In this document: positions 10,285-53,174 of the stretch, one piece after another | How positions within the stretch are numbered: position 1 is the stretch's first letter | Layout: every line of letters begins with the position of its first letter | Virus record (IMG/VR): IMGVR_UViG_2718218453_000001 | Coordinates: 1-53,871 of that record | DNA length: 53,871 nucleotides | From: a virus | Taxonomy: Duplodnaviria; Heunggongvirae; Uroviricota; Caudoviricetes | Strand: one strand, 5' to 3' | Position numbers and translations under genes: made by a program | Notes under the pieces: model-generated | Database searches by the model: none | Seen by the model: the letters and a program-made list of their open reading frames with translations, nothing else | Told to the model about the DNA's origin: nothing

Positions 10285-10480
10285 TGGTGAATAGTTGTGA
10301 GGAACAATAATGAAATAATCATTCGGAATAAAAATTTCACTTTTGATGAAAAAAAATCATAAATCACGCTACCTTCCGATGAACACTCATGAACAGTCAC
10401 TGAATACTGCCTTGTCAACCCTTCACCTCTTAACTAGCTGTATTATCAATTTTTTTATCAAAGTGAACAGTAGTGAATAG
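10285..10480. promoter_or_regulatory. Second iteron cluster (candidate crr-like replication region)
   Basis: Repeated GTGAATAG / TGAACAG / GTGAACAG motifs (10286, 10390, 10463, 10473) in the AT-rich intergenic region; ATCACGCTA is shared with the 5831 region; about 4.5 kb from the first cluster. Confidence 0.35.
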
Positions 10481-10546
10481 TATTTATTAAAGGAAAGTTG
10501 AAGATCAGACATGACACATTTCTCTGGCTAGCCAGAACAAGGTCAT

Positions 10547-10564
10547 TGTTCTGTCACTGACACA
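10547..10564 (+). promoter_or_regulatory. Delta/Ogr-dependent late promoter dyad upstream of sid
   Basis: TGT-N12-ACA inside the perfect inverted repeat ATTGT...ACAAT, centred about 80 nt upstream of the sid start codon. Confidence 0.6.
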
Positions 10565-10636
10565 ATCCCCCTCGGTAGTGCGCTTGTATGGGCATCGGCA
10601 CAATTGACACGACAACAAAACACTACCGGAGCATTC

Positions 10637-11389
10637 ATGACTACTGTTAACCAGATCTCTGATGCAAACATTACATCCTCCCTCCCGCCGAAAATTCGCG
10701 AAGCGGTGGAAAAAGTTAAGGCAGCAAAAGCTGTCTGGCAGGAAGAACGGCGAAAACAAACTGAAGCTGCTGCAATGATTGAAACTATCCGTAAACGTCA
10801 GGAAGATACAAAAACGGAAACGCAGGCGCTTAATGATGAATGGCGAAACCTGTTTCGTGAGAATCAGGGAAATATGACACCACGCATGAAAAAACTGCGG
10901 GCAGAAATCGCCCTCGGACGCGAAACACTGGATGAGTTCGAAGATTTGCTGGCAGCTCAGGTGGCAGAAAATGAATTCCTGCCCTGGAAAACTGCGGATG
11001 CTGCAAACCACTACATCAGCGAACATAATCGCCTGATTGAAACTCATGCAGTGTGGCTCTGGAATGAGTTTATGAAGGAACACGGCCAGAAACTTATTCA
11101 GATCCTTGGACTGTTGAAAATGACTCTGGGCCGAAGCGCTTCTGCTGTTATCGGTGTAGTTCATACCGTAAACGACCCCGAAAGTGTGCTGAAGCAATTT
11201 ATCAGCGAGCAACTCACCACTCCGGCACTGTCCTGTAACGTATCTTCAACGGATGATATTACCCTGCCGGGGATCAGCATTTATGCGGACGATAAAGCCA
11301 TCCAGGATGCCAGACAATCCCCCAGCCCTGCAGCGCGTTCACGGATGCTTAAACAGCGTGACATGGTTAAAGGGGGCGAGAAGAAATGA
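10637..11389 (+). CDS. sid: Sid-like external scaffold (capsid size determination) protein
   Basis: 250 aa from ATG with GGAG RBS; highly charged alpha-helical composition; first gene after the late-promoter dyad, followed by psu and delta. Confidence 0.6.
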   Translation: MTTVNQISDANITSSLPPKIREAVEKVKAAKAVWQEERRKQTEAAAMIETIRKRQEDTKTETQALNDEWRNLFRENQGNMTPRMKKLRAEIALGRETLDEFEDLLAAQVAENEFLPWKTADAANHYISEHNRLIETHAVWLWNEFMKEHGQKLIQILGLLKMTLGRSASAVIGVVHTVNDPESVLKQFISEQLTTPALSCNVSSTDDITLPGISIYADDKAIQDARQSPSPAARSRMLKQRDMVKGGEKK

Positions 11390-11940
11390 ATGCCGGAACC
11401 ATTACTCAGGAAGCTCTCAACGATTACCGCTCGGCGATAAAAAGCTGGCTGACACTACGTAATACGCAAAGTACCTACCAGCTTCGTCTGGCGGCTCTGC
11501 TGAATACTGAAGAAAAACCGGCAGCATATGCCAGCCAGCTTGAGGAGCTTCGTGAGCGTCTTGCTGTCCTCGAATGGCAGATTAACTGTGCTGCACGGGA
11601 TGGTCTTTATGCTCACCAGATTGTGCTGGAGAGTTGTGTTACAAGCGCAACGGAAAACTTCATGAGCGAGCATGGTGATGCACTCACTGACGCACTGGCT
11701 CCTTTTCTTTGCGCTCCATACGGGCTTGAGGCGGCAATGAAAATATTACGAACCGCTGTAGCCCGACAAACGGAAGTGCGTACTCCGGTAATTTCAGCAG
11801 CATACAAGAGCATTATCGACGAAACCGGATTAACGGTGGATGCATCAATGTACGCTGATGCTTCAACCAGTTTCACCCCGGCACAACATAAAGTTTTCCT
11901 GGCCCGCCTTAACCGACTTAATGAAAAAGGAGGGTACTGA
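11386..11940 (+). CDS. psu: Psu-like polarity suppression / capsid decoration protein
   Basis: 184 aa, ATGA overlap with sid; position and size match P4 Psu. Confidence 0.6.
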   Translation: MNAGTITQEALNDYRSAIKSWLTLRNTQSTYQLRLAALLNTEEKPAAYASQLEELRERLAVLEWQINCAARDGLYAHQIVLESCVTSATENFMSEHGDALTDALAPFLCAPYGLEAAMKILRTAVARQTEVRTPVISAAYKSIIDETGLTVDASMYADASTSFTPAQHKVFLARLNRLNEKGGY

Positions 11941-11941
11941 T

Positions 11942-12214
11942 ATGGCCCTGAAGTGTCCTGAATGTGGGACGGTCGCTCACGCCAGAACCAGCGCCTATGA
12001 AGCTCCATCGGTTAAACGCTCATGGTATCAGTGCCAGAATCTGGAATGTTCCTGCACATTTACCGCTCTGGAAAGCGTGGATACGATAATTATGAAGCCT
12101 TGGCGCAATGAACAGGAATCAGACAAAGAACAAATGCCAGAAAAACAACAGCAAACTCTCAACCGCTATGGCTCCGCGTCAAAGCTGTCAAGCCGTCAGC
12201 TAATTCCTGTCTGA
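11942..12214 (+). CDS. delta: Delta/Ogr-family zinc-finger late transcription activator
   Basis: CPECGTVAHARTS...YQCQNLECSCTF matches the Ogr/Delta CxxC-N22-CxxxxC zinc finger; AGGAGGG RBS. Confidence 0.85.
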   Translation: MALKCPECGTVAHARTSAYEAPSVKRSWYQCQNLECSCTFTALESVDTIIMKPWRNEQESDKEQMPEKQQQTLNRYGSASKLSSRQLIPV

Positions 12215-12238
12215 TTAGCAAAATACGCCCACGTAGTC

Positions 12239-12262
12239 CCGGTCCAGTACCGGGATTTTTTA
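12239..12262 (+). terminator. Rho-independent terminator of sid-psu-delta operon
   Basis: Stem cccggt / accggg followed by TTTTTT. Confidence 0.65.
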
Positions 12263-12289
12263 CGCCTTTTCCCTGGCTGGCCTGAAGGC

Positions 12290-12450
12290 GTATGAGTGCA
12301 TATCTATAGCGCATGAAAACGCATGAGTCTCATGCGCCATTTTTGACGCGAAAGCCCTTGTGTGGTGGCTTCTGAGACGATTTACGGGGTGCATGAAAAC
12401 CAGTCTGTTAAGCGAAGCGGGCAGGCGGGCGGGGCAGCGCACGCTGTGTA
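12290..12450. other. cos-like region of satellite (putative cohesive-end site)
   Basis: Homologous block-by-block to 28535-28695 of the prophage (gtgcatatctatagcgcatga, ggtgcatgaaaacca, aagcgggcaggcg); GGCGGGCGGGGCAGCGCAC at 12424-12442 resembles the P2/186 19-nt cohesive end as recalled. Confidence 0.5.
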
Positions 12451-12639
12451 TGGTCAAAGTAACTTTTAACTTTCAATGAGTACCTGATTGAAAGAATCGT
12501 TTATCACGTTAAAGCGATAACAATGATTTTAAGCAGCGAGTGTGGTGTAAGTATCATTGTCGAGTAAAAATGTTGCAAGCTATTGAAATAAGTATATATT
12601 GCAAATGATGAGGAAAATAAAATATGCAAGGACCTACTC

Positions 12640-13038
12640 ATGGATGCACTGCATGTCGCGCTTGAAAATCTGATTAGAGATGATGGTCAAACACTAAATA
12701 GTTATTTTAGTGAAGTTAAAGTTAATTCATTGATTGAAAATACAAATGCAACTTGTCATTTTCATTGCCTTAATCTTGATGGCAATGGACGTCCTCGGGT
12801 AGACGCGTTAATCCAATTCTTGAACGATAAAGTAGTTGATTATGCTATTCCAAGGAAAAAAATCAATGAGGCAGTGCAATATTTTAATGAAACACAATCA
12901 ACAGCGAAAATAACAAAATTAGCAAATCAAGCAAAAAATTATTTACTAGGCTTGCAAATAGTGGCGAAGGCGGTGAATTTATTCTTTTTTTATTTGCAGA
13001 GCAATTCCTTAGATTTCCACAAATTATTTGCAAAATGA
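12640..13038 (+). CDS. Hachiman HamA-like protein, N-terminal part (possibly one gene with next ORF)
   Basis: AT-rich 132-aa ORF; ends in ATGA overlap with the next ORF; a T7 homopolymer at 12985-12991 lies where the two frames are both open. Confidence 0.45.
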   Translation: MDALHVALENLIRDDGQTLNSYFSEVKVNSLIENTNATCHFHCLNLDGNGRPRVDALIQFLNDKVVDYAIPRKKINEAVQYFNETQSTAKITKLANQAKNYLLGLQIVAKAVNLFFFYLQSNSLDFHKLFAK

Positions 13039-13580
13039 GCCTGAAAACGAGTTCTCAAATGCATTACCATGGTGCAGATGGAATACATATAGGCGTAGAT
13101 AAAGATAATAAAAAATTATGTTTATACTGGGGCGAGTCTAAACTCTATTCCAATCTGAGCAAAGGTATTTCTGAGTGTATGGATAGTATAGCTCCATTAC
13201 TTCAAAGTTCTATGGGAATAGAAGGCGCTGAGACACGTGATATGCAGTTGCTGGAGTCGCACTTAAATGTTGATGATATAGAACTAGAACAAGCGTTGAA
13301 AAGATTCTTAGATCCTGATAGCCCGGATTTTAATAAATTGGAATACAGAGGAATATGCTTAGTTGGGTTTGATCTTAAAGATTATCCACAAGGGCCCAGT
13401 TCAATTGATATCAGTGAACTAGTTGCTTTGATTAATACTAAAGTCGGGAAATGGTCAACTAGTGTGCAAGGTGGTATAGTTAATAAAAAACTTGATCGCT
13501 TTGCTATGCATGTTTTTATTCTTCCTTTTCCTTCAGTAAAAGCATTTAGGGCTAGTTTAATTAAAGCATTGGAGAGTTGA
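13035..13580 (+). CDS. Putative PD-(D/E)xK-type nuclease module (HamA-like, C-terminal part)
   Basis: 181 aa; motif GVDKD...LCLYWGESK resembles a D...ExK nuclease core; stop 2 nt before the helicase ATG. Confidence 0.5.
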   Translation: MSLKTSSQMHYHGADGIHIGVDKDNKKLCLYWGESKLYSNLSKGISECMDSIAPLLQSSMGIEGAETRDMQLLESHLNVDDIELEQALKRFLDPDSPDFNKLEYRGICLVGFDLKDYPQGPSSIDISELVALINTKVGKWSTSVQGGIVNKKLDRFAMHVFILPFPSVKAFRASLIKALES

Positions 13581-13581
13581 A

Positions 13582-16164
13582 ATGTCGTTGCGAGATTTAT
13601 CTGGGTGGTTGATTAAGAATCAAGGATTCTTAAGAAAATATCAGGCATTAGTCGCTAACTCGATAAAAGATCAATTTCCAGAGTTAAAATCAGATGTAAT
13701 CCCACAGATTAGTTCTGAGGATGTCGGCTATCTTTTAACATGTGCTAGTTCTTTGGCTTTCTCAAGTGATGAGAAATGCCAAGATGCAGCCTTAAGGATT
13801 GCACAGTATTGCTTATTGAATGAAAAAAGTGAAGCAAGAAAAGATAGTGCTGCATTAATTCTTGATTCATTATCTAATAATCCAGCAATACAACTTGCTG
13901 AAAATAGGGGGTATCTTAACCCTGATTTCGAAGAAAGATTACCCTTAAAGGCTCAGTTAGAACTAACTAAAAGAAAAATTCTATATACAATTGAAATAGA
14001 TGCTGATAAGCATATTTATGCTAATAGGTTTCAATCAGAGTTTTGGGATGCGGTACAAGAAAACTCATGGGTTAGTGTCTCTGCTCCTACCTCTGTAGGA
14101 AAATCATTTATCCTGGAATCTTGGGTGGAGCAGTTTGTAAAAAGAAATAAGAATTGCTTAGTTATTTATATCGTACCAACAAGGGCATTGATTTCAGAAG
14201 TATATTCTGAGTTGCAAAAACGTTTGGATCCTAATTTAACAAATATAGTTAATATTCAGACACTACCATTGAGTAATGTATACCAGAGCGAAAAATCTAA
14301 TGTCTTCATATTTACACAGGAAAGATTAAATTTATTCTACAATCATTTCTCACAAATTCCAAAGATAGACGTCTTAGTTGTTGATGAAGCACACAAGATC
14401 GGTGATGGTGGAAGAGGTGTTATTCTTCAACATGTAATTGAACTGACTTGTCTAAATAACCCTGATTCAAAAGTTATCTTTGCAAGTCCTTTCACCTTAA
14501 ATCCTGAAATATTGCTCAGTGATGCTCCAATATTAAAAAACAAAAGAACTATAAAAAGTGACTATGTTACAGTTAATCAAAATTTAATATGGGTAGAACA
14601 AAAACCACGCAAGACCAAAGATTGGTTGATGTATTATTTTGCAAACGGTGAAAAACGCGAGTTAGGAAACTTTTCTTTAGAAAATGCACCATCTCCTGAA
14701 AGTAAAAGATTGCCTTTTGTAGCTCTTTGTTTAGGTAAGGGGGCTTCTGGTAACGTAGTTTACGTAAATGGAGCCGCTGAAGCAGAATCTACTTCCAAGC
14801 TAATATCTGCAAGTATAGAAAATGAGACTGAGGATGAAGAAATTTTAGCTCTCGTTGAGCTTAGTGAGACAATTATACATAAAAATTTCGCATTAAATCG
14901 CACTCTAAAAAAGAGAGTCGCTTTTCATTATGGCAACATGCCTTTAATAATAAAGGGCGAGATTGAACGATTGTTTAGTAAAGGTAAGATTGATTTTTTA
15001 ATTTGTACCTCAACTTTAGTTGAGGGCGTAAACATGGCTTGTAAAAATATTTTTATAAGAGGCCCTAAAAAGGGTAATTCAACCCCGATGCGAGAAGAGG
15101 ATTTTTGGAATCTTGCTGGCAGAGCTGGTCGTTGGGGAAAAGAATTCCAAGGTAATGTCATCTGCATCGATAGCGACAATGAAAAAATTTGGAATGGAGA
15201 GCCTCCAAAAACCAAAAAAAATATATTTATAACTCGCGCCACGGATGCTATTTCCCATGACATGGATAAGTTGGTTTCCTATATTTTTTCAGAGCATCAT
15301 TTTGGTATGTCTGAGCGGAATCCTAATCTCCAGAGTCTATTTAGTTATTTATGTTCATCATTTTATTTTTATAATGGCTTGGATAATAATCCTTACATGG
15401 AAAAGTACAATATAAAAAATATCGATGTTTTAAATGAAGCAATATTTGATGTTTTTGATTCTTTAACTTTTCCACACGAATTGGTTGTGCGGCATCCTGG
15501 TATAAGCCCGCTTTTAATGCAAAACCTTTGGGATAGATTTTCGCGGGATACAAACAAACCTGTAGAGAGATTACTGCTTTCTGAACCTGGTAGTAATGAT
15601 GCGTTAGATTCATATGTATCCGCATTCTCTAGAATTAGTGATACTCTGAGTAAGAAGCTAGGTTATAATTCAAAAGGAGCTTACGTACAGGCCTTGTTAG
15701 TTTCCAAGTGGATGAAAGGTTATCCCCTAGCAAGATTGATCTCGGATAGAATAAGATATAACAAAAAGAAAAATATTGTTTTCAAAGAAGCGACTTTAAT
15801 ACGAGGGGTTATGAAGGATGTTGAAGAGATCGCTCGCTATCAAGCTCCAAGGCTTTTAGGATGTTATAATGATTTATTAAAAAGCTTTTATCTTTCGATA
15901 GATCGCACAGACTTAGCAAAAGATGTTGAAGATATCGGTGTTTATTTAGAACTGGGTGTAAGTTTAAAAACTCAGATTTCACTAATAGGGCTTGGCTTTT
16001 CAAGAACTGCTGCTGTAATGATTTCAGAGCTTATTCCTAATGATAGTTTAGATGAGGAAGAATGCATTAATTGGATTAAGGACAATAAAGTTGACATGGA
16101 AGAACTGCCACAATTAGTTCAAAACGAAATACATAATATATTTCGTAACTTTTGGGTACAATAG
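13582..16164 (+). CDS. SF2 (Ski2/Lhr-like) helicase, Hachiman HamB-like
   Basis: Walker A APTSVGKS, motif II VVDEAH, motif VI NLAGRAGRWG, C-terminal RecA-like block FHYGNMP...ICTSTLVEGVNMACKNIFI; 860 aa, AT-rich. Confidence 0.8.
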   Translation: MSLRDLSGWLIKNQGFLRKYQALVANSIKDQFPELKSDVIPQISSEDVGYLLTCASSLAFSSDEKCQDAALRIAQYCLLNEKSEARKDSAALILDSLSNNPAIQLAENRGYLNPDFEERLPLKAQLELTKRKILYTIEIDADKHIYANRFQSEFWDAVQENSWVSVSAPTSVGKSFILESWVEQFVKRNKNCLVIYIVPTRALISEVYSELQKRLDPNLTNIVNIQTLPLSNVYQSEKSNVFIFTQERLNLFYNHFSQIPKIDVLVVDEAHKIGDGGRGVILQHVIELTCLNNPDSKVIFASPFTLNPEILLSDAPILKNKRTIKSDYVTVNQNLIWVEQKPRKTKDWLMYYFANGEKRELGNFSLENAPSPESKRLPFVALCLGKGASGNVVYVNGAAEAESTSKLISASIENETEDEEILALVELSETIIHKNFALNRTLKKRVAFHYGNMPLIIKGEIERLFSKGKIDFLICTSTLVEGVNMACKNIFIRGPKKGNSTPMREEDFWNLAGRAGRWGKEFQGNVICIDSDNEKIWNGEPPKTKKNIFITRATDAISHDMDKLVSYIFSEHHFGMSERNPNLQSLFSYLCSSFYFYNGLDNNPYMEKYNIKNIDVLNEAIFDVFDSLTFPHELVVRHPGISPLLMQNLWDRFSRDTNKPVERLLLSEPGSNDALDSYVSAFSRISDTLSKKLGYNSKGAYVQALLVSKWMKGYPLARLISDRIRYNKKKNIVFKEATLIRGVMKDVEEIARYQAPRLLGCYNDLLKSFYLSIDRTDLAKDVEDIGVYLELGVSLKTQISLIGLGFSRTAAVMISELIPNDSLDEEECINWIKDNKVDMEELPQLVQNEIHNIFRNFWVQ

Positions 16165-16196
16165 TCTTATTTAGACGATTTTTTAAACAATCAATA

Positions 16197-16245
16197 GAGA
16201 AGTTTTTGAATTTTATCATTCTTCCAGTAACAAAAACTTCTCTTT
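16197..16245. terminator. Bidirectional hairpin between convergent genes
   Basis: Perfect 13-bp inverted repeat AGAGAAGTTTTTG / CAAAAACTTCTCT. Confidence 0.5.
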
Positions 16246-16256
16246 TATAACACCGC

Positions 16257-16715
16257 TCAGGCTATTCCAGAATAGGCTTTGCTTACTTCACTATGCCTTG
16301 TGCCGCAATGCCTCAAAATAACAAGGCCATGTTGCAGTAACGCCTCACTACGTTCAGGTTCAAACCATTTCCCGTTAAATTTTCCTCCGTGAAAAAGATT
16401 GTTTCTTACACGGCGGATTAACAAAAAAAGAAATTTTGCTAAATCTTTTTCTTGTGGTAAAGAATCATCCCAAACTAAAGAGTCATCTTCTATGATTTGT
16501 TTTTTGGGTGGGTGTTCTTTAAAGTAGGTGATAGCAGCAATTAGCTCTGGATCAGTTGTGTTATTTATGATTTCAGAAACTTGCTTTGCATACTCATCCC
16601 AGTTCGCTTTAGCATCTTTTATTTTATGATGAAGTCCACATGCCTTAAGGCAATATTCATAACGTGAAAACTCTCTAAAGAATTCATAACATAAATTATC
16701 TAGATTATTCTCCAT
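16257..16715 (-). CDS. HEPN-motif protein (putative RNase-type abortive-infection or toxin component)
   Basis: 152 aa, AT-rich; R-x4-H motif RNNLFH near C-terminus; GGAGAT RBS; downstream of and co-directional with int. Confidence 0.55.
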   Translation of the reverse strand: MENNLDNLCYEFFREFSRYEYCLKACGLHHKIKDAKANWDEYAKQVSEIINNTTDPELIAAITYFKEHPPKKQIIEDDSLVWDDSLPQEKDLAKFLFLLIRRVRNNLFHGGKFNGKWFEPERSEALLQHGLVILRHCGTRHSEVSKAYSGIA

Positions 16716-16744
16716 GAACTATATCTCCATGTATAACAAGTTAA

Positions 16745-17944
16745 CTAATATTGATTGCGCTCGTACACTTTTTGGCCCCACCAATTCATAAGTCCTATTC
16801 GTTGCTCAAGGTAAGTTGAACGATTATATGCTCTGCGCACTTCATTTTTATCACTATGTGCAAGAGCAGCCTCAATTACATCTGCATTAAAACCCGCTTC
16901 ATTTAATGCGGTGCTGGCAATTGAACGCAATCCATGAGCAACCAATCTACCACCAAATCCAATCCTTTTTAAAGCAGCATTTGCCGTCTGGCTATTCATT
17001 GGTTGCTTTGGGTCATTCCGACTCGGGAAAACATGTTCACGATGGGCACTGATTAGCTTCATCACATCAAGAATCTCTAATGCCTGAGGAGATAGAGGGA
17101 CTATGTGTTCCCGCTTAGCCTTCATTCGTTCAGCTGGGATAGTCCAGAGCTTTGCATCGAGATCGAGCTCAGCCCACCTAGCACCGGAAGCCTCAGAAGG
17201 ACGAACTAGAGTCAGGAGTTGCCACTCAATGAGGCAGCGAGTCGGAACAGACAAATTTGACATGACGAGAGAACGCATCAGCATAGGCAATTCTTCTGGG
17301 CGCAACGTAGGCATATTTTGTTTTTTTGGCTTCTCAAAGGCCATTCCAATGCCTGATGCTGGATTGGCATCAATAAGACCAGTATTTACGGCATAAATCA
17401 TTATCTCGTTAACACGCTGCACCAACCGGCGCACCGTCTCCAGCGCCCCACGAGCTTTGATCGGTTCAAGGGCTTCAACCAGTGTTCGGGCTTTGATTTG
17501 CTGGACAGGGATCTCCCCGATGGTGGGGAATACGTCTTTTTCCAGTGAACGCCATATATCTTTAGCGTAATCATGGGTAACGCTTTTGCTTTTGAGCTGG
17601 AACCAGTTAGCGGCGACCGTCGAAAAAATACTGTCCAGAGCGATTTGCTGCTGTTCCTCTGCAACTTCAGCTTGAATTTGCGGGTCGATTCCGTTGGCTA
17701 ATAGGGCAAGGTAATCTGCTCTTAACCCTCGGGCATCAGCAAGAGAAAGGGCAGGAAAAGCACCAAGTCCCATCATAGTCCGCTGTTTTGTTGCTGGGCG
17801 TTGATAGCGAAAGCGCCAGAGTTTCTTGCCGCTAGTTTTCACTATCAGGAAAAGCCCATCGCCATCATGCAGCGTTAGATCCTTCTCTAACGCTTTCGCG
17901 CGCAGAACTTCGGTGTTGGTCAGGGGGCGTGTTGTCCGTGCCAC
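16745..17944 (-). CDS. int: P4-type tyrosine integrase
   Basis: 399 aa; N-terminal MARTTRPLTNTEVLRAKA...DGDGLFL typical of P4/CP4-57 IntA-like integrases; adjacent to ssrA core copy. First codon is GTG. Confidence 0.9.
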   Translation of the reverse strand: MARTTRPLTNTEVLRAKALEKDLTLHDGDGLFLIVKTSGKKLWRFRYQRPATKQRTMMGLGAFPALSLADARGLRADYLALLANGIDPQIQAEVAEEQQQIALDSIFSTVAANWFQLKSKSVTHDYAKDIWRSLEKDVFPTIGEIPVQQIKARTLVEALEPIKARGALETVRRLVQRVNEIMIYAVNTGLIDANPASGIGMAFEKPKKQNMPTLRPEELPMLMRSLVMSNLSVPTRCLIEWQLLTLVRPSEASGARWAELDLDAKLWTIPAERMKAKREHIVPLSPQALEILDVMKLISAHREHVFPSRNDPKQPMNSQTANAALKRIGFGGRLVAHGLRSIASTALNEAGFNADVIEAALAHSDKNEVRRAYNRSTYLEQRIGLMNWWGQKVYERNQY

Positions 17945-18095: not shown

Positions 18096-18128
18096 CTGTA
18101 CTTCACCGGACGTATCCGGATCATTATT

Positions 18129-18173
18129 TGGTGGAGCTGGCGGGAGTTGAACCCGCGTCCGAAATTCCTACAT
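18129..18173 (-). repeat. 45-bp direct repeat of ssrA 3' end (att core)
   Basis: TGGTGGAGCTGGCGGGAGTTGAACCCGCGTCCGAAATTCCTACAT identical to 52812-52856. Confidence 0.9.
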
Positions 18174-18258: not shown

Positions 18259-19212
18259 TTAATGCTCTGCCGCCAAAGTGCCGCCAGTCTTTCTTGAATC
18301 TTCTAATGCTTCATGATCTTTAATTAGTACCTTCAACGAGTTAATTACTTTAATTTGGCATTCCTTAATTAAGTCAGGTAATTTTTCATCAATCTTTGTT
18401 TCTTTTGAATAGAATAAAGTTCTGTTAATGCAATTTTCCAGTCCTCCACTCTCATTCAAATCGGGGAATAGTACAAATCTCCCAAATGCAATGCCATTTT
18501 CCACTTCAACATATACCTTTGGGTGCTCATCTATATAACCGTGGTGAATTATATGATTTCGTAATGATGTTACAGTGTTTATAAAATTGCTATTTTCAAA
18601 TATGGTATCCGTTGTTGTCGAAAAAACTAATTCTTTATAGTTGCCGTATAATTTATTTTTGGATATTAATTTCTTGTATTTAGAGATTGGGAAGTTACTC
18701 TTTAATAATTCAAAGGAGATTTTAGTAACGTAGTCAAACAAACTATTCATTTTTATAAATAGCATGCTTAACAAAGAAAATAGCAAGCTTGTTTTTGGCG
18801 ATTTTGCTACTAAAATCCCTTTAAAATCTTTGTCTGGTGTGGTTATTAACAAATCGCTCCAGAGTATTTCATAAAATTGTTGCGCTATAACAGAGAGTTC
18901 CAAACTACACTCTGTTATATATGAAATTAAGACTTCACAGTCTTGGATGTAAAGAATGTTTGAATCAAAAAATTGCGTTAATTTATTAAAAGTGTTTTTG
19001 CAAACTTGAGATTCCGAGTTATGACCAACATCTCTGATAGTGTAAATGTTAGATTCTTCGGCGATGGAAATCCTTTCTTTTATTTTATCGAAAATTGCAT
19101 ACAGGGCTATACTTAGATTTTCGATTTCATATTGTTCGTTTGTATAGATGATGTTATTCATCAGATCACTTCCTATTTCTATAATGGAGTTAGAGGTTTT
19201 TTGTAACTGCAT
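18259..19212 (-). CDS. Hypothetical protein, partner of RES-like gene (cargo)
   Basis: 317 aa, strongly AT-rich, ATG with AAGAGG RBS, 33 nt downstream of the RES-like gene. Confidence 0.65.
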   Translation of the reverse strand: MQLQKTSNSIIEIGSDLMNNIIYTNEQYEIENLSIALYAIFDKIKERISIAEESNIYTIRDVGHNSESQVCKNTFNKLTQFFDSNILYIQDCEVLISYITECSLELSVIAQQFYEILWSDLLITTPDKDFKGILVAKSPKTSLLFSLLSMLFIKMNSLFDYVTKISFELLKSNFPISKYKKLISKNKLYGNYKELVFSTTTDTIFENSNFINTVTSLRNHIIHHGYIDEHPKVYVEVENGIAFGRFVLFPDLNESGGLENCINRTLFYSKETKIDEKLPDLIKECQIKVINSLKVLIKDHEALEDSRKTGGTLAAEH

Positions 19213-19245
19213 CCTCTTAATACTCTACCGCCAAAACGCCGCCAC

Positions 19246-20457
19246 TTAAGGCTCAAGATAATCATGCTTCATCATTTTATGAATTAACAATTGAACTTTT
19301 TTGAATGAGGTATTATTGTAATATTCCACTAGCGATTCATCAAAATCTTCAATTGTACCTGATGCTGGAGTTGGTCCTCCCATTATGAGTCTATCTTCAT
19401 CCATACCATCGGTCTTGACGTTTAAAGTGCTAAATACTTGCCATGAAACAGGTTTGGTAAATTTAAATATATTTAGTAAGTGTGGGCAGTAATCATAACC
19501 AGAATCCAAAATATTATCCATTTTAGGTGGCATGATTATATTAATACCAATATCACTATCTTTTTGATTGAGAATTTTAGTCGTGCGATAAGCGATACCG
19601 GCTATGCCCTTATTTTCATTGCTGCTGAGCCATTGCATAAGAAGGTTGGGGATTATGTACTCAGGGTTGAAACTAGAGTTTTTATGTTGTTTTGTATAAT
19701 TACAGGCTAACACAAGTGGCCAGGAAATTAAGTTCGAAATGACCCTATTCATAGTTCCTTCAGTATCATTATCTAACAGCCATGCTAAGGTGTTTATGTT
19801 CAATGCTGATCTCAAATTATAACCAAGGTTAAGTATTCTATGTGATGAACCAGACTCTGTGATGAATGAAGATACATATAATTTATCAAAGTCTGGTTTT
19901 TCCATTTCTTGCCAACATACAAAAATAGAGGTTCCTAAATATAAACAAGGAAGGCCTGAGACTGAGTATCTTTGTGCATTCACAAGATAACGTTTAGAAA
20001 AAGGAATATGAAAGATATCACGCCTTTCTTTTATTATTTGATCGCTTTTTCTTACGCGAAATAGAGGTTTTCCAGGATGACAAAACACACTTAATGGAAC
20101 GGACATATTATAGATGTGGTCATTTATATTTGTCTTGGTGATAGCGTGATCAAATGTTAGGTAAGATTCTTTGATTTTACCGTTTAAATATAATCTAAGT
20201 GTTTCTGAAATTTTATCCGAGAGTGTTTTTGTGCTTTTTATTTTTGATTTTATTTCACGAATTACAAGGTTGTGAGGGTTTTTACTGTAAATCTTGTTTA
20301 TGACTTCTAGGTAACATTTAACCCTATTGTTAAAATCTTTAATGATATTATTTCCCGCGAGATAAGGAGCTTGTAATAGTGGTTTGGACTCTATTTCGAA
20401 TAATATTTCATTAAGCATTGCTACATAATCTGTGGTACTAATTTTATTAATTTTCAT
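19246..20457 (-). CDS. RES-domain-like protein (cargo)
   Basis: 403 aa, AT-rich; segment QRYSVSGLPCLYLGTSIFVCWQEM resembles the RES-domain core (Arg ... Glu); starts 4 nt after int stop. Confidence 0.65.
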   Translation of the reverse strand: MKINKISTTDYVAMLNEILFEIESKPLLQAPYLAGNNIIKDFNNRVKCYLEVINKIYSKNPHNLVIREIKSKIKSTKTLSDKISETLRLYLNGKIKESYLTFDHAITKTNINDHIYNMSVPLSVFCHPGKPLFRVRKSDQIIKERRDIFHIPFSKRYLVNAQRYSVSGLPCLYLGTSIFVCWQEMEKPDFDKLYVSSFITESGSSHRILNLGYNLRSALNINTLAWLLDNDTEGTMNRVISNLISWPLVLACNYTKQHKNSSFNPEYIIPNLLMQWLSSNENKGIAGIAYRTTKILNQKDSDIGINIIMPPKMDNILDSGYDYCPHLLNIFKFTKPVSWQVFSTLNVKTDGMDEDRLIMGGPTPASGTIEDFDESLVEYYNNTSFKKVQLLIHKMMKHDYLEP

Positions 20458-20461
20458 TATG

Positions 20462-21481
20462 TTAAATCGCTAGTGATGATAAAGGGTTTTTTGTTACAGC
20501 ATCTTCAAGATGCTCAGGTGAAAAATGAGAATAGACCATAGTCATTTTTATATCTGAATGGCCTAAAATATCTCTTAGTACAAGAATATTCCCTCCATTC
20601 ATCATAAAGTAACTGGCGAATGTATGGCGCAAGACGTGGGTACATTGTCCCTCTGGCAAGTCGATACCAGCTCGTTTAACTGCACGCTCAAAAGCTTTTC
20701 TGCATGGGGTGAATAACTTCCCTCTGTTCTTGGGGAGTTCGTCATACAGATCCTGAGATATCGGCACGGTACGGTTTTTCTTGCCCTTCGTCTTGGTATA
20801 AGTGATGCGGTATTTTGATAACTGATGGCCCTGCAGGTTTTCTGCTTCACTCCACCGCGCACCAGTAGCTAGGCATATTTTTGCAATCATCAGCAGGCTG
20901 GGGCTTTGAGAATCCGCGCAGGCATCCAGCAGGCGTTTAATTTCTTCTGGGGTCAGGAATGCCAGTTCACCCTCTGCGATTTTGAATGTTGGCAGACCGG
21001 CGAGCGGGTTAGGGGCTGACCAGTGGCCCAGTTTTTTCAGAGTCCCAAAAACTGATGATAGGTTGCGTTGTTCGAGGTTTACCGTTCGGGGCTTAACTGG
21101 CGACATAAGCGCGCCATCTTCATTTCGCACTTCACCTTTTAATCGCGCTTCACGGTATTTCGTAAAATCTCCGGCGGTCAGCTCTGAGGCGATAGGGTCG
21201 CCCAGGCCATTACAGATAATTCTAAGTTTCGCCATCAGGCGTTTGGGGTCTGCGAGCGTCTGCCCGTATAGTGAGTGCCATTGCTCTATCACTTCTGACA
21301 GATGCCGCCGATCTTCCTTTTCCCCCAGCCATGGTTTTTTGTTTACTTCATCCATGGTGAAGTTTTCGAATGCTACGGCTTCGCCTTTCGTCGCAAATTG
21401 CTTGCGCACGCGCTTGCCGTCCCGCCCGTTAGGGTAGCACTCACACAACCATTTTCCGTTCGGCTGTTTACTGATGGTCAT
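20462..21481 (-). CDS. int: P2/186-type tyrosine integrase
   Basis: 339 aa; C-terminal HVLRHTFAS...ILGHSDIKMTMVYSH catalytic motifs; position next to the repressor gene. Confidence 0.9.
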   Translation of the reverse strand: MTISKQPNGKWLCECYPNGRDGKRVRKQFATKGEAVAFENFTMDEVNKKPWLGEKEDRRHLSEVIEQWHSLYGQTLADPKRLMAKLRIICNGLGDPIASELTAGDFTKYREARLKGEVRNEDGALMSPVKPRTVNLEQRNLSSVFGTLKKLGHWSAPNPLAGLPTFKIAEGELAFLTPEEIKRLLDACADSQSPSLLMIAKICLATGARWSEAENLQGHQLSKYRITYTKTKGKKNRTVPISQDLYDELPKNRGKLFTPCRKAFERAVKRAGIDLPEGQCTHVLRHTFASYFMMNGGNILVLRDILGHSDIKMTMVYSHFSPEHLEDAVTKNPLSSLAI

Positions 21482-21483
21482 GA

Positions 21484-22116
21484 CTAAATACTCTTGATTA
21501 CTTTAATGGCTCGCCCGACAACTTCCACATCATCAACAGAACACTCAAAGGATGAGTCGTCCTGGTGAACAACAATTCTGTTGCCTGGTATTCGGGCAAT
21601 CTTGACGATGCTTTTCACCCCATCAATATCGACAAGCCAGTAACCATTGCTAACCTGTTTGACAGATATATCCACTACAAAGCAGTCAGTAGACGTTTTT
21701 ATAAACAATGAATTGCCGGGCTCACTGTCCAGTAAGCTGCTATCAAGCAAGACTTCCCCTTCGTTATTCAACTCCCCATTCTTCAATTCGGCTTGCTTAA
21801 TGCTGGGGGCAACGATTTTGGAAAGTGGTCGAAGCGTGACGTTTGACTCGTTTACGGGATTTTTTTCTCGATCTTCTGAAGTGAACATTTCACCCTGGCC
21901 TGTGGCTAGCCATAGCAGCGAAACCCCTGTTTCAAGTGCACACTGGATGACCCACTCAGCAGGAAAGCTATCTCGTAAGTTTCTGTTTGCCATAGTGCTT
22001 TTTGAAATTTTTAAATGGTCAGCTAGTGCTTGTTTGGTGCTGAATCCATATGCCTTAAGCAATCTTTCGATCGCCTCTCTACCTCCCGTATTGGGACCTG
22101 CCTGAATGTTGATCAT
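21484..22116 (-). CDS. cI: 186 CI-like immunity repressor
   Basis: Divergent from the apl-cII operon, adjacent to int; HTH-like N-terminus; start chosen at second ATG with GGAG RBS. Confidence 0.7.
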   Translation of the reverse strand: MINIQAGPNTGGREAIERLLKAYGFSTKQALADHLKISKSTMANRNLRDSFPAEWVIQCALETGVSLLWLATGQGEMFTSEDREKNPVNESNVTLRPLSKIVAPSIKQAELKNGELNNEGEVLLDSSLLDSEPGNSLFIKTSTDCFVVDISVKQVSNGYWLVDIDGVKSIVKIARIPGNRIVVHQDDSSFECSVDDVEVVGRAIKVIKSI

Positions 22117-22235
22117 CAAATACTCCATTGACGACCACTTAAAGTGATCGTAGTATCGCGATTATCCCGCAAGGGGAATCCTGAAAAGTGAGCTAAAACG
22201 AGATAAAACTAACTTAAATCTAAGGATACTGCACT

Positions 22236-27965: not shown

Positions 27966-27985
27966 ATACTGTAAATATAAACAGT
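27966..27985 (+). promoter_or_regulatory. LexA box (SOS operator)
   Basis: TACTGTAAATATAAACAGTG fits CTGT-N8-ACAG (core 27968-27983), upstream of the small ORF and DinI-like gene. Confidence 0.6.
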
Positions 27986-28027
27986 GGTTATACATACAGT
28001 ATTGCGTGTGGTGTCATAGGAGGAAAG

Positions 28028-28216
28028 ATGCAGGACTATTTTTTGGAGTCTTTGAAGCTCCAGCGCATTGATTTTTTTCTTAAGCTTGTAGCGGCTAGTG
28101 AGTGTAGTGATGAAGAGAAGGGGCTGGCTTTGCAGTGGGTTTCTGAACTAACAGATGAACTCATGGCAAAAATCAGAACCCACGAATACAACCGCTCAAT
28201 GGATGTCATCAGCTGA
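28028..28216 (+). CDS. Hypothetical small protein
   Basis: 62-aa ORF downstream of the LexA box. Confidence 0.4.
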   Translation: MQDYFLESLKLQRIDFFLKLVAASECSDEEKGLALQWVSELTDELMAKIRTHEYNRSMDVIS

Positions 28217-28226
28217 GGTGACTTTT

Positions 28227-28460
28227 ATGCGCATTGAAATAATGATCGATAAAGAGCAGAAGATTAGCCAGTCTACACTGGACGCCCTTGAATCCGAGCT
28301 TTACCGCAATCTGCGCCCCCTGTATCCCAAAACGGTAATTCGTATCCGCAAAGGTAGCTCTAACGGTGTGGAACTGACCGGACTGCAACTGGACGAAGAA
28401 AGAAAACAAGTGATGAAAATTATGCAGAAGGTGTGGGAAGACGACAGCTGGCTGCATTAA
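28227..28460 (+). CDS. DinI-family protein
   Basis: MRIEIMIDKEQKISQSTLDALESELYRNLRPLYPKTVIRIRKGSSNGVELTG... DinI-like; GAGGTG RBS; LexA box upstream. Confidence 0.8.
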   Translation: MRIEIMIDKEQKISQSTLDALESELYRNLRPLYPKTVIRIRKGSSNGVELTGLQLDEERKQVMKIMQKVWEDDSWLH

Positions 28461-28695: not shown

Positions 28696-28829
28696 TAGAA
28701 ACAGTCGTTTGTTTACAAACAGATACTATGATTTTCAATGTTCTTTCAAATTGTTGCTTTAAGATAGCAGGTAGATGTTTGTAGTTGTTGCGTGAACTGA
28801 TAAGCTTCAACAACTATCGAGGAAAGGAT

Positions 28830-29897
28830 ATGAAGCGGCTAACTGAAGAACAAATTGAACATTCTTTGATCAGAGCAAGGAAGATTGCGAAGCGGGAGTC
28901 AAGAAAGCTTTCTGGTGGAAGACGGATGCTACAGCCCATGCGGGTATTCTCTCGTGTGAGAATACCCGCGCCTGCGTCATTGGACTTATTTAATACTAAA
29001 AATTACAAACTATTTATAGAGTTTATCACTTTAATCAGAGATTACATCAATGATGGTGAGAAAATTTTAATAGATTTCAGAAATACAAAATCTCTGAAAG
29101 CATGTGCAGTAATCGTATTGTATGCACATATTGACTTTTTACAAAGGCAAACAAAAGATAAAAATATAATTTCTATTACTACGTGCGGTTCACCCAGGGC
29201 AAATAACTGGTTTAAAATATGTGGTATTTGGGGGATTACAGGGTTTCAGCGTATAGCTGCAGATAAGCTTAATTCAATGGAAATTGTTTCCGCTGTTGCA
29301 GGCAAAACTAGAGATGATCATGAAAGTGCCGAAGCAAGACAAAAAATTAAAAATATTCTACGTTATATAAAAGATACCATTTATGAAGGTAAGATTTCCG
29401 CTTCGGATGGTGTGAAATTATATGCAGCATTAACTGAATCTATTAGCAATGTTGGTCTACATGCGTATTCAAATGAAGAACAGTTCTCTGAATTTATTGA
29501 GGACATTGGTAAAAGATGGTGGATATTGGCACACAAAGTCGAAGAACAACTATTTTTGATGGTGTATGATATGGGAGAAGGTATCCCAGTTACATTGGTT
29601 AAAAAAGACTTTTTCACATTTATCGCTCAGATATTTAATCCTAAGACGGATTCTGATAAAATATTCGCGGCTGTACAGTATGGTGAGACAAGAATGAATA
29701 GTCAGAAGCATGGTAAAGGATTACCTGATATGAAAAGGTATGTTGTAGATAACCCTGAGGGGCAGTTACATATTTTTAGTGGAATGGGACGATATTCTTA
29801 TGATGCTGAAAATAATGTTGAAGATAAATTTGATCTGCCATACTCCATAGGTGGAACCCTTATTCAATGGAATGTAAGTTTGAGAGGTGCTGAATGA
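28830..29897 (+). CDS. RsbW/SpoIIAB-like GHKL kinase/ATPase domain protein (cargo gene 1)
   Basis: AT-rich; GHKL motifs: N-box ESISNVGLHAY, G1 VYDMGEGIP, G2 GKGLPD; start at ATG 28830 with GAGGAAAGG RBS; inverted repeat TAGTTGTTG / CAACAACTA just upstream. Confidence 0.7.
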   Translation: MKRLTEEQIEHSLIRARKIAKRESRKLSGGRRMLQPMRVFSRVRIPAPASLDLFNTKNYKLFIEFITLIRDYINDGEKILIDFRNTKSLKACAVIVLYAHIDFLQRQTKDKNIISITTCGSPRANNWFKICGIWGITGFQRIAADKLNSMEIVSAVAGKTRDDHESAEARQKIKNILRYIKDTIYEGKISASDGVKLYAALTESISNVGLHAYSNEEQFSEFIEDIGKRWWILAHKVEEQLFLMVYDMGEGIPVTLVKKDFFTFIAQIFNPKTDSDKIFAAVQYGETRMNSQKHGKGLPDMKRYVVDNPEGQLHIFSGMGRYSYDAENNVEDKFDLPYSIGGTLIQWNVSLRGAE

Positions 29898-30214
29898 AAA
29901 TCAAAGAGATACATGTTGCTGAAGATTTTTCAGATGTTCCCTATGGCCGCTATGATGAGGATGGTCCTGATAATGGACAACGTTTCCGTGAAAAGTATCT
30001 TTTGAAAGCCATCCAAGATTATGATGAGGTGCACGTGTACCTTGATGGTGCTATGGGTTATGGTTCTTCATTCTTGGAAGAGGCGTTTGGTGGACTTTAT
30101 AGAACAAATAATATAGATAAAGCTATAATTAGGAAAAAATTAAAAATATTTACTGATTTGGATTTCCTCAAGGATAGTATATGGGGATATATTTCTGATG
30201 CTAAAAAGGAGTGA
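29894..30214 (+). CDS. STAS-like (anti-sigma-antagonist fold) small protein (cargo gene 2)
   Basis: 106 aa, ATGA overlap with gene 1; VHVYLDGAMGYGSSFLEEAFGGL resembles STAS/DUF4325-like sequences. Confidence 0.6.
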   Translation: MKIKEIHVAEDFSDVPYGRYDEDGPDNGQRFREKYLLKAIQDYDEVHVYLDGAMGYGSSFLEEAFGGLYRTNNIDKAIIRKKLKIFTDLDFLKDSIWGYISDAKKE

Positions 30215-30219
30215 TGTTC

Positions 30220-30708
30220 ATGGATGAACTTCCGGTTTATCTGCGGTTATTACAATACCTTGCTAGTTCAGGTGTGATTGCAATTCTAACAGCCTTGATT
30301 GGTTGGGTTTTTGTATATAGAAACTCCCGTGCGTTGCAAAAGAGGAGTGAAACATGGTCAATTGTAAAAAATGTTTCAGATAATTTAAAGGAAATTGAAT
30401 CTGCATCAAGAAAGTTTTGGATACCGGGAGATTCAAAAGAAATTGATGCAATGTCATTTCAAAATGAGATAACAGCACTTCTTGCGGAGACCGAGCGGTG
30501 GTTGAATCATCTAAAACAACGCATTAATATCGAAGGTGACTATAAACCTTTGATTGCTGATTTATTCAAAGATGCTACATCTAATATTGAAAAAGCACAG
30601 GAGTATGATAAAAGTCAAAGGACAAGAATTAGTGTATTAGTGTCAAAAAGGGCGAAAATAATTAAATCTCTAATTGATGAGTCTTATCAGAAAAAATTCT
30701 TAAAGTGA
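30220..30708 (+). CDS. Small membrane protein (cargo gene 3)
   Basis: N-terminal hydrophobic helix LASSGVIAILTALIGWVFVY then charged helical region; AAAGGAG RBS 8 nt upstream; overlaps gene 2 stop. Confidence 0.6.
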   Translation: MDELPVYLRLLQYLASSGVIAILTALIGWVFVYRNSRALQKRSETWSIVKNVSDNLKEIESASRKFWIPGDSKEIDAMSFQNEITALLAETERWLNHLKQRINIEGDYKPLIADLFKDATSNIEKAQEYDKSQRTRISVLVSKRAKIIKSLIDESYQKKFLK

Positions 30709-51892: not shown

Positions 51893-51963
51893 TGTGCTCT
51901 CAATATTGATATTTTGTGTATCATTGCAATGATTCTGATAGCAAAGGTAGGGATCTGGATATG

Positions 51964-52179
51964 ATGAATTGTCCAAAGTGTGGTCATGCGGCACACACAA
52001 GGAGCAGTTTTCAAGTAACTGAAAGCACCAAAGAGCGTTACTGCCAGTGCCAAAATATTAACTGCGGGAGCACTTTTGTTACCCATGAAACAGTGGTCCG
52101 GTTTATTGTGACACCCGCACTGATTGCTACTGCTCCTCCACATCCATTGCCAGGTGGTCAGGGGCATATGAATTTCTGA
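51964..52179 (+). CDS. ogr: Ogr-family zinc-finger late gene activator
   Basis: MNCPKCGHAAHTRSS...YCQCQNINCGSTF matches the Ogr zinc finger. Confidence 0.85.
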   Translation: MNCPKCGHAAHTRSSFQVTESTKERYCQCQNINCGSTFVTHETVVRFIVTPALIATAPPHPLPGGQGHMNF

Positions 52180-52205
52180 GAAAGAGAACCTGCTACGGCA
52201 GGTTT

Positions 52206-52688
52206 TTATTCATCTGGGATCTCACCCGTTTCAAGAAAATGTATAAAGCCAGGCTCATCTATGATGATCGTGCCTTTCATCCTGGCTGCCGATACTTTCG
52301 ATGGGCCTGCATTGTAACCGCAACAGAGCATCTGAAGGCTTTGGGTTACAGAGGCTCTTACCGTTAATCCTTGTTCATTCGCCTTATCAACCAATCTTTC
52401 TTTATCTGCTTTCTTAAATCCGGTGAAACACACATCGAATGTATTTTTTTTCGGACCAGACTGCTTAGTGAGATGTGAGTAGTTTTCGGGGAGGAATGAC
52501 GCGCATTCCTGAATGGCTTGTTCTGGTGAATCGTACTGTTTAAGAATGCGGTCTTTTCGGAAGGTTTTTATTCGATCGGTGTTCTTACAAATGCCCTGTA
52601 TATGATTTTCGCTATAACTGATGCTCTGTATTGAGTGAACACCGATACGACCATTTGCATTGATGTAAACAAAGTGAAGTTCTTCCAT
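52206..52688 (-). CDS. WYL-like plus BRCT-like domain protein (cargo between ogr and att)
   Basis: 160 aa; N-terminal HIQGICKNTDRIKTFRKDRI resembles WYL motif; C-terminal FDVCFTGFKKADKERL...GLTVRASVTQSLQMLCCG...IIIDEPGFIHFL resembles BRCT; AAGAGG RBS. Confidence 0.6.
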   Translation of the reverse strand: MEELHFVYINANGRIGVHSIQSISYSENHIQGICKNTDRIKTFRKDRILKQYDSPEQAIQECASFLPENYSHLTKQSGPKKNTFDVCFTGFKKADKERLVDKANEQGLTVRASVTQSLQMLCCGYNAGPSKVSAARMKGTIIIDEPGFIHFLETGEIPDE

Positions 52689-52714
52689 GTGAAACCTCTT
52701 TGCATGATTTCAAG

Positions 52715-52753
52715 ATGGCGACAGGCAAGATGGACGCAATAGTCTGTCGCCAT
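52715..52753. promoter_or_regulatory. Palindromic operator-like element upstream of WYL/BRCT gene
   Basis: Perfect 10-bp inverted repeat ATGGCGACAG / CTGTCGCCAT with 19-bp spacer, 27-65 nt upstream of the start codon. Confidence 0.4.
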
Positions 52754-52764
52754 TTTGCCGCCAC

Positions 52765-52803
52765 TACCAAAGAAAAAGGGGCTACGCTTTCACGTAACCC
52801 CTT
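52765..52803 (-). terminator. Rho-independent terminator of ssrA (phage-supplied)
   Basis: Minus-strand hairpin AAGGGG...CCCCTT followed by TTTTTCTTT; the same element is copied at 1483-1521. Confidence 0.7.
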
Positions 52804-52811
52804 GATTTATT

Positions 52812-53174
52812 TGGTGGAGCTGGCGGGAGTTGAACCCGCGTCCGAAATTCCTACATCCTCGGTACTACATGCTTAGTCAGTCTTTACATTCGCTTGCCAG
52901 CTGCGGACGGACACGCCACTAACAAACTAGCCTGATTAAGTTTTAACGCTTCAACCCCAGGCAGGGCTTCCACGCGATCTCTTTTGGGTTTGACCTCTCT
53001 TGATCCCCGTCCTAAGAGCGGAGGCTAGGGAGAGAGGGCTCTAAGCAGGTTATTAAGCTGCTAAAGCGTAGTTTTCGTCGTTTGCGACTATTTTTTGCGG
53101 CTTTTTACGAGGCCAACCGCCCCTCGGCATGCACCTTGGGTTTCGCAAATCCCGTCGAATCCAGAATCAGCCCC
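52812..53174 (-). ncRNA. ssrA: tmRNA (SsrA)
   Basis: Reverse complement gives GGGGCTGATTCTGGATTCGACGGG at the 5' end and ...GGACGCGGGTTCAACTCCCGCCAGCTCCACCA at the 3' end, matching the enterobacterial tmRNA sequence as recalled; 363 nt. Confidence 0.95.

Follow-up and report, generated by a model that had tools for sequence, protein, structure and literature searches.

A two-domain WYL-BRCT protein encoded beside the integrase arm sites of a 186-like prophage at ssrA

Several temperate phages carry genes between the repressor gene and the integrase gene or attachment (att) site, among them lambda rexAB, lactococcal sie2009, and K139 glo, and these are expressed with the repressor in lysogens. 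Many such genes located downstream of cI encode membrane proteins that exclude other phages. The subject of the present analysis is a gene for a WYL-BRCT protein of 160 amino acids (aa), together with the inverted repeat that precedes it, located between ogr and ssrA in IMG/VR virus record IMGVR_UViG_2718218453_000001 (positions 1 to 53,871; the window, in what follows, is this whole stretch of 53,871 nucleotides). The WYL domains of DriD, PafBC, and CapW are damage sensors activated by single-stranded DNA (ssDNA; PMC9186387, PMC11662680); in CapW, arginines flanking the W-Y-L triad (RWHVR) contact the ssDNA (PMC11662680). BRCT domains have a phosphate pocket to which the beta1-alpha1 loop contributes Ser/Thr-Gly and the N-terminus of alpha2 a Lys (PMC10386641). 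The combination of the two domains was recorded by Makarova et al. (2014; PMC4012209), who listed BRCT among WYL fusions without comment. We lean towards an overall explanation in which the locus comprises a two-domain WYL-BRCT protein and a set of integrase (Int) arm sites, and in which the protein would serve the lysogen as a nucleic-acid binder in exclusion; we hold this to be somewhat better than an even chance.

The gene and the two domains of its product are placed as follows.
52206 to 52688, minus strand: WYL-BRCT coding sequence, 160 aa, ATG start (open reading frame listing and RefSeq annotation).
52533 to 52682, minus strand: WYL-like five-stranded beta-barrel, residues 3-52, with the motif T42-F-R-K-D-R-I48.
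52227 to 52436, minus strand: BRCT domain, residues 85-154, with T89, G90, and K131 invariant.

The protein consists of an N-terminal WYL-type Sm-like barrel, a short linker, and a single BRCT domain of the LigA/RFC1 type. The AlphaFold2 model, built on a 45-sequence alignment, has a pLDDT of 91.3 overall (90.7 over residues 1-78), and runs from a barrel (3-52) through two helices and a linker of low confidence (about 74-84) to a C-terminal domain (85-154). The first of these has the Sm/SH3-like five-stranded beta-barrel fold of WYL domains, which are also its best matches in fold comparison; the last has the beta-alpha-beta-beta-alpha-beta-alpha fold of BRCT domains. In profile searches the protein's own WYL and BRCT scores both lie below the Pfam gathering scores: BRCT (PF00533) reaches 18.7 bits vs. 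a gathering score of 21.3, WYL (PF13280) gives no match even at E<=10, and a profile search of PDB sequences returns nothing for the N-terminal WYL-like domain. The closest solved sequence is the BRCT domain of RFC1 p140, which binds DNA ends. At E<=0.01, BRCT is matched by 33 of 45 family members and WYL by three. The two assignments are nonetheless right, because homologues pass Pfam's own thresholds for both domains: the homologue at locus L046 scores 27.5 bits for WYL (threshold 21.8) and 34.9 bits for BRCT, and homologues P0200, P0141, P0152, P0238, and P0196 also clear both. The WYL profile misses the present member simply because of its divergence. A preliminary description of this DNA had proposed a 160-aa reading frame convergent to ogr, WYL-like at its N-terminus and BRCT-like at its C-terminus; the frame was found at 52206..52688 (-), and both likenesses hold by fold comparison and by the homologues above the Pfam thresholds.

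Residues invariant in the 45-sequence alignment are Y8, T42, T89, G90, F91, K93, L99, L121, G124, K131, and A135. The T-F-R-K-D-R-I strand of the barrel is conserved (T42 invariant, F43 nearly so), and the W-Y-L triad is replaced by H29-I-Q31 (context N-H-I-Q-G), an equivalence drawn by spacing, without superposition. In the model, T89-G90 lies at the end of beta1, in the beta1-alpha1 loop, and K131 at the N-terminus of alpha2; as modeled, these three residues occupy the positions of the BRCT phosphate pocket. No helix-turn-helix (HTH), enzymatic or catalytic, or effector domain is present in the 160-aa protein by Pfam or in the AlphaFold model.

Database labels for this protein and its relatives point elsewhere. 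PHROG 2561 ('DNA ligase') matches over the full length (E 5e-77), and matches to LigA models are confined to the last ~100 positions of the model (TIGR00575, 549-650 of 652, 19 bits vs. a cut-off of 444). The labels 'DNA ligase' (PHROG) and 'DEDDh exonuclease' (NCBIfam) were rejected, as they rest on the BRCT region only; an NAD-dependent DNA ligase was rejected because the adenylation, OB-fold, Zn-finger, and HhH domains are absent from these 160 aa. The 'DNA ligase' label in phage records NC_049342 and NC_008201 is likewise a mis-transfer from the BRCT match. In PADLOC v2.0, the BRCT part matches the C-terminus of the candidate PDC-S48 (E 2e-7), and a match to SspE is weak.

The reading frame is a genuine gene under purifying selection, with pN of 0.06-0.25 vs. 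a saturated pS of 0.67-0.91 between orthologue pairs. In E. coli genomes that are 100% identical it is named 'BRCT domain-containing protein' by RefSeq (WP_021534458.1), and of 5426 complete E. coli genomes, 169 (~3%) contain the entire locus. Homologues numbered 114 among 5.8 billion proteins, most of them full length (155-190 aa); a profile search of 1.84 billion cluster representatives gave 2620 matches at E<=1e-3, 879 at E<=1e-10, and 193 at E<=1e-30. The best 150 clusters are mostly stand-alone proteins of ~160 aa. Among these same 150, N-terminal extensions of at least 50 aa occur in 44, of which 38 have at least one predicted transmembrane (TM) helix, so that about a quarter of the family's clusters (38 among the best 150) are predicted to be membrane-anchored; C-terminal extensions occur in 17. 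The extensions fused to family members, at either end, contain no Pfam domain, and fusion thus suggests no function except through the membrane helices. Examples of the membrane-anchored form, with 1-3 predicted N-terminal TM helices and a gene directly behind cI, are found in Pasteurellaceae and a betaproteobacterium (L046 4536-5492, L051 4719-5519, L055 4590-5531). The family is large, uncharacterised, and cI-linked, and is nothing categorically new; its link to cI in P2-like prophages and its membrane-anchored variants are described here.

Upstream of the gene lies the inverted repeat, a perfect 10-bp core (ATGGCGACAG, 52715-52724) whose complement stands at 52744-52753 across a spacer of 19 nt, which extends to 14 nt at 93% identity (52711-24 / 52744-57). 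The preliminary description had reported a 10-bp inverted repeat with a 19-bp spacer 27-65 nt upstream of the start codon, and the repeat is present exactly so. Perfect inverted repeats of at least 10 bp with spacers of up to 30 occur eight times in the window, vs. ~1.4 in random Markov-1 sequences drawn from the window's own base-to-base transitions. The repeat is beyond chance in view of this enrichment of its class in the window and, above all, of the recurrence of the same motif in tandem. The features concerned are the following.
52713 to 52723, minus strand: inverted third Int arm-type site, reading TGTCGCCATCT on the minus strand; left arm of the palindrome (pattern match).
52745 to 52766, plus strand: two tandem Int arm-type sites of the P' arm, TGTCGCCATTT (52745-55) and TGCCGCCACTA (52756-66), with an 11-bp period.
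52776 to 52803, minus strand: strong intrinsic terminator in the phage P' arm, a 12-pair stem followed by a T run (with the 186 annotation).
52807 to 52856, minus strand: attR core, a 50-bp identity block over the ssrA 3' end, with an exact duplicate at 18124-18173.
18124 to 18173, minus strand: second ssrA 3'-end core, attL of the P2/186-like prophage, at the junction with a P4-like satellite.
18268 to 18289, plus strand: two tandem Int arm-type sites of the P arm, TGCCGCCAAAG (18268-78) and TGCCGCCAGTC (18279-89), ~95 nt from the core.

The identity of this motif was taken from two sources, Nilsson et al. and the phage 186 record. The 186-type arm-site consensus is tgccGCCActt (PMC3448106), and in the phage 186 record the 'Int arm-type recognition sequences' are given the consensus YAYCGCCAYTY, with three sites to the left of attP and two to the right. 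By sequence, all five candidate sites in the window match the 186-type consensus, with two or more direct repeats to either side of the core, and the tandem site at 52745-55 is itself the right arm of the palindrome. Read from the B/ogr side towards int, the order of elements is also that of phage 186 attP: an inverted site and a tandem pair come first, then a minus-strand terminator and the core, and last a second tandem pair. Because of this consensus match and shared layout, the palindrome is identified as the P'-arm set of putative 186-type integrase arm-binding sites of attP, and not as a dedicated operator. The two phages differ in that the att core lies in tRNA-Ile in 186 and at the ssrA 3' end here; the inverted site is separated from the first direct site by 7 nt in 186 and by 19-21 nt here; and the ogr terminator is ~25 nt from the arm sites in 186, whereas the WYL-BRCT gene is inserted at this point here.

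Conservation follows the integrase and not the gene. The inverted site occurs in 42 of 45 E. coli-lineage loci, and all 16 loci with a protein identity of 59-74% lack it; upstream of the gene, relatives at this distance keep only 'TGGCGGCA AAA TGGCG(G/A)CAG', in tandem and with an 11-bp period. The tandem pair is retained in all aligned relatives, and in a Pantoea prophage whose integration site is tRNA-Met, TGGCAGCA is the sequence of both copies. At two loci where the WYL-BRCT gene lies beside cI (L011, L037), the tandem motif lies at the 3' end of int or shortly behind it, well away from the WYL-BRCT gene. Relatives are encoded on 203 IMG/VR contigs, mostly near-identical prophage ends, a scan that served only to check the conservation of the inverted repeat. 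These results bear on the proposal, made in the preliminary description, that the palindrome is an auto-regulatory operator of the gene. An operator, bound by the WYL-BRCT protein or by another regulator, would accord with a repeat perfect over 10 bp so close to the start codon, and proteins bound there, Int included, could incidentally affect the gene's transcription. It is nevertheless very improbable, given that the protein has neither an HTH nor any other sequence-specific DNA-binding domain, that relatives at 59-74% identity all lack the left arm and keep the tandem pair only, and that the arms are copies of a motif equal to the 186-type Int arm-site consensus (PMC3448106), of which a further tandem pair lies across the core, towards int, and which tracks int/att. 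A reading of the repeat as a CI operator was rejected, the half-site being absent from the cI-apl region.

Two further occurrences of arm-site material were observed. A tandem Int arm-type pair, TACCGCCAAAA CGCCGCCACTT, is present at 19226-19247 between two ORFs (open reading frames) downstream of int (403 aa and 317 aa, within 18259-20457) that have no Pfam or PADLOC match; with arm-site pairs on both of its sides, the 317-aa ORF is bracketed as if inserted into the P arm. A 76-nt piece (52750-52826) that takes in the P' arm sites, the terminator, and the tip of ssrA has copies of 90-97% identity at 2501-2576 in L061 and L062, unannotated and beside ypjC/ypjA, and about 820 other complete E. 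coli genomes have only partial matches resembling it. The piece has the look of an attachment-site end left as a fossil by a 186-like phage.

The prophage is 186-like, with a CI of the Phage_CI_repr plus Phage_CI_C architecture and a P2-type Int (both by Pfam), and is integrated at ssrA in tandem with the P4-like satellite. The genes at the end of the window are, in order, gpD, ogr (51961..52179, +), the WYL-BRCT ORF, convergent to ogr, ssrA (tmRNA, 52812-53174, -), and smpB. Two features complete the setting.
20462 to 22128, minus strand: lysogenic operon of int (20462-21481; Int_N plus Phage_integrase) and 186-type cI (21484-22128; Phage_CI_repr plus Phage_CI_C).
52187 to 52204, no strand assigned: hairpin between the convergent ogr and WYL-BRCT genes, reported as a terminator-like site on the minus strand.

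The hairpin is a probable bidirectional terminator, at a position equivalent to that of tB after B in phage 186, and the terminator at 52776-52803, the counterpart of the 186 'terminator of lysogenic operon', ends ssrA transcripts in the lysogen. The RNA leader of the gene is not unusually structured (fold z = -1.89) and tmRNA is the sole Rfam match; on these grounds an RNA element was rejected. Across attP, the WYL-BRCT gene is co-oriented with the cI-int operon: the minus-strand order on the circular phage is cI, int, ORF403, ORF317, attP, WYL-BRCT, and integration at ssrA therefore leaves it as the last gene of the prophage. In a strain 100% identical over the 931-bp ogr-to-ssrA query, a Rha-family gene occupies the apl position and is followed by cII, fil, and A (RefSeq).

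Among relatives, most P2/186-like prophages have the family gene 3-50 nt downstream of cI on the same strand. The homologue directly follows cI in Mannheimia PHL101 (ORF35 CI, ORF34) and Vibrio PV94 and in Pectobacterium and Yersinia prophages; in Burkholderia vB_FUB5a one hypothetical gene stands between an XRE regulator and the homologue. A neighbor census covered 54 loci, in 31 of which a same-strand ORF ends within 200 nt upstream; these 31 neighbors include Phage_CI_repr (11), HTH_3 (11), and Peptidase_S24 (7), and by inspection the immediate neighbor is a repressor gene in 18 of them, including those beside the membrane-anchored forms at L046, L051, and L055. The genes downstream vary between loci, as cargo does, and some encode membrane proteins; a conserved downstream partner gene was searched for across the loci and none was found. 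A second arrangement, in which att is followed by the WYL-BRCT gene and a convergent ogr, occurs in Escherichia, Citrobacter, Klebsiella, Erwinia, Tatumella, Plesiomonas, and Pantoea. A few loci adjoin AbiGi-like or McrB-N/HNH genes, and one adjoins a look-alike, by eye, of a KAP P-loop NTPase. A Pfam-less domain with the motif ...W..VPYA.R.ALD...W.WTQG....F..GD... is found either fused to the N-terminus of WYL-BRCT or as a separate neighboring ORF (L023 4443-5000, L024 4242-4990, L058 3587-4036, L026 5502-6098, L043 2174-3163), and it may be a functional partner.

The SOS module of this prophage lies elsewhere. No LexA box is present near the WYL-BRCT gene, in agreement with the preliminary description; the only LexA-like site of the window, TACTGTAAATATAAACAGTG, is at 27967-27986, directly after gene A, and matches the consensus at 17 of 20 positions where none is expected by chance. 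Behind it are a 62-aa ORF (28028-28216) and a DinI-like ORF ending at 28460, which related phages annotate as DinI or 'SOS induction modulator'. This module (27967-28460) is the positional equivalent of p95-tum in phage 186, in which the p95 promoter, the LexA site, and tum (29082-29522) lie behind gene A, at 29020-29522. The preliminary description had also placed the 186 antirepressor at the locus of the WYL-BRCT gene, a comparison that fails since tum of 186 follows gene A and no gene lies between B and attP in that phage. A Tum-type SOS antirepressor was rejected as an identity for the WYL-BRCT protein, there being no LexA box near the gene, no DinI match, and a Tum-like module elsewhere.

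How might such a protein act? Tentatively, and with confidence that stops short of an even chance, we propose a binder of ssDNA and of a phosphate-end structure that would interfere with foreign DNA in the lysogen, a proposal drawn from the comparisons above. The protein would act without catalysis, through the binding of nucleic-acid structures: the WYL barrel would take up ssDNA in the manner of CapW, DriD, and PafBC, and a 5'-phosphate or DNA end would be seated, as in RFC1 and LigA, in the phosphate pocket of the BRCT domain (T89-G90...K131). The protein could thereby recognise, in the lysogen, the cohesive ends, nicks, or gaps of incoming or replicating foreign DNA and, by occupancy or tethering, block its circularisation or replication, with superinfection exclusion or defence as the result; the membrane-tethered module of about a quarter of the clusters would sit where phage DNA enters the cell. 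For the family as a whole, it is conceivable, although we consider it unlikely, that WYL-BRCT proteins are widespread effector-less prophage sensors that read ssDNA plus a 5'-phosphate end. At the membrane they might then cap incoming phage DNA at its cohesive ends or nicks, a new mechanism of superinfection exclusion; alternatively, they might couple ssDNA sensing to the CI switch, independently of RecA/LexA. Several observations weigh against binding in exclusion. The placement next to cI, ahead of variable cargo, suits a role tied to the switch no less well than one in defence. A scan of 52100-52900 gave no sigma-70-like promoter, and manual inspection likewise revealed nothing convincing; with no promoter recognisable between the ssrA terminator and the ATG, expression in this prophage is unproven. 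The neutral pI of 6.95 is atypical of a DNA-coating protein, and the CapW-type arginines flanking the triad are absent, so the ligand may not be ssDNA. Nothing in PADLOC v2.0 matches a known defence system over the full length, and no functional study of any family member was found in the literature searched.

A near-equal rival, itself doubtful, is a DNA-damage sensor acting on the lysis-lysogeny switch, in which the WYL domain would sense ssDNA made after damage and the BRCT domain, through contact with CI, RecA, or another part of the switch, would either stimulate or curb induction, much like the ImmR/ImmA pairs of repressor and sensor, without the protease. In at least 18 loci the gene stands immediately behind cI and ahead of variable cargo, the repressors concerned belong to two unrelated families, and the best fold matches are the WYL domains of the damage sensors DriD, PafBC, and CapW; a 2026 preprint on Roseobacter prophages, in which cI/BRCT modules replace quorum-sensing modules, likewise presumes damage sensing (PMC13345283). 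This prophage, however, already has a LexA-box plus DinI/Tum-like module, and the seven partner repressors with a self-cleaving S24 domain need no extra sensor. Membrane anchoring in about a quarter of the clusters would be odd for a factor directed at a repressor, the protein has no HTH, and in this prophage int, two ORFs, attP, and a strong terminator separate the gene from cI. An improbable alternative makes the protein a counter-defence decoy, which would soak up the ssDNA or phosphate nucleotides that alarm CapW, BrxR, or other sensors, or mimic the BRCT domain of LigA, and which, pre-made in the lysogen, would shield the prophage when induced. It shares the ligand-binding fold of CapW/BrxR without an output domain, it is small and neutral like known sponge proteins, and CapW-controlled CBASS does restrict prophage induction (PMC11662680); yet the ssDNA-binding residues of CapW are only partly conserved (PMC11662680), the membrane-anchored variants are ill-suited to a soluble sponge, and no co-occurrence with WYL-regulated defence systems was seen, with no search aimed at such systems.

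Other cargo was observed in the window and its relatives. Three ORFs at 28785-30708, between the DinI-like gene and the portal gene at the position of the P2 tin/old hotspot, encode proteins of 370, 106, and 165 aa, the second annotated STAS-like by RefSeq and the third hydrophobic at its N-terminus, and may form a defence cassette. Besides psu-like genes and a delta-like gene, the P4-like satellite in tandem at ssrA (~9000-17944; L005 1119-8425) has a Hachiman system, consisting of HamA fragments and an 860-aa helicase (13582-16164), and an integrase of its own (16745-17944; Arm_DNA-bind_3 domain). In the prophage copy of E. coli strain 4012, the second P2 hotspot, which lies between the positions of the S and V genes, is occupied by a TIR-domain gene followed by IS1 (L005 30132-31708).

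Action of this family on DNA ends or ssDNA in lysogens, if true, would amount to a non-enzymatic, sensor-only mechanism for exclusion or for lysis-lysogeny control, and would be the first role of a BRCT domain in conflict between phages and bacteria. For databases, the correction is that WYL-BRCT proteins are neither DNA ligases nor exonucleases, contrary to the labels in some phage records; for annotation of P2/186-like prophages, a conspicuous palindrome beside an att site should be read first as integrase arm sites.

The resemblances of the WYL-BRCT protein to described systems are partial. The architecture in Makarova et al. (2014; PMC4012209) is the same, WYL plus BRCT, with no description there of the family, its context, or its function. 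From the wHTH-WYL-WCX regulators (winged HTH; CapW, BrxR, PafBC, DriD) it differs in the absence of HTH and WCX, in having H-I-Q for W-Y-L without the flanking arginines of CapW, and in its output, which is a BRCT domain and not promoter control through DNA binding. With LigA and RFC1 p140 it shares a single-BRCT sequence type (CFTGF...GYNAGPSK vs. ...GRDSGQSK), with weak matches to both, and the Thr-Gly and Lys of the phosphate pocket are common to all, although the WYL-BRCT protein is no ligase or clamp loader. With rexAB, sie2009, and glo it has no relationship of sequence or fold; what the WYL-BRCT gene has in common with them is its genomic niche.

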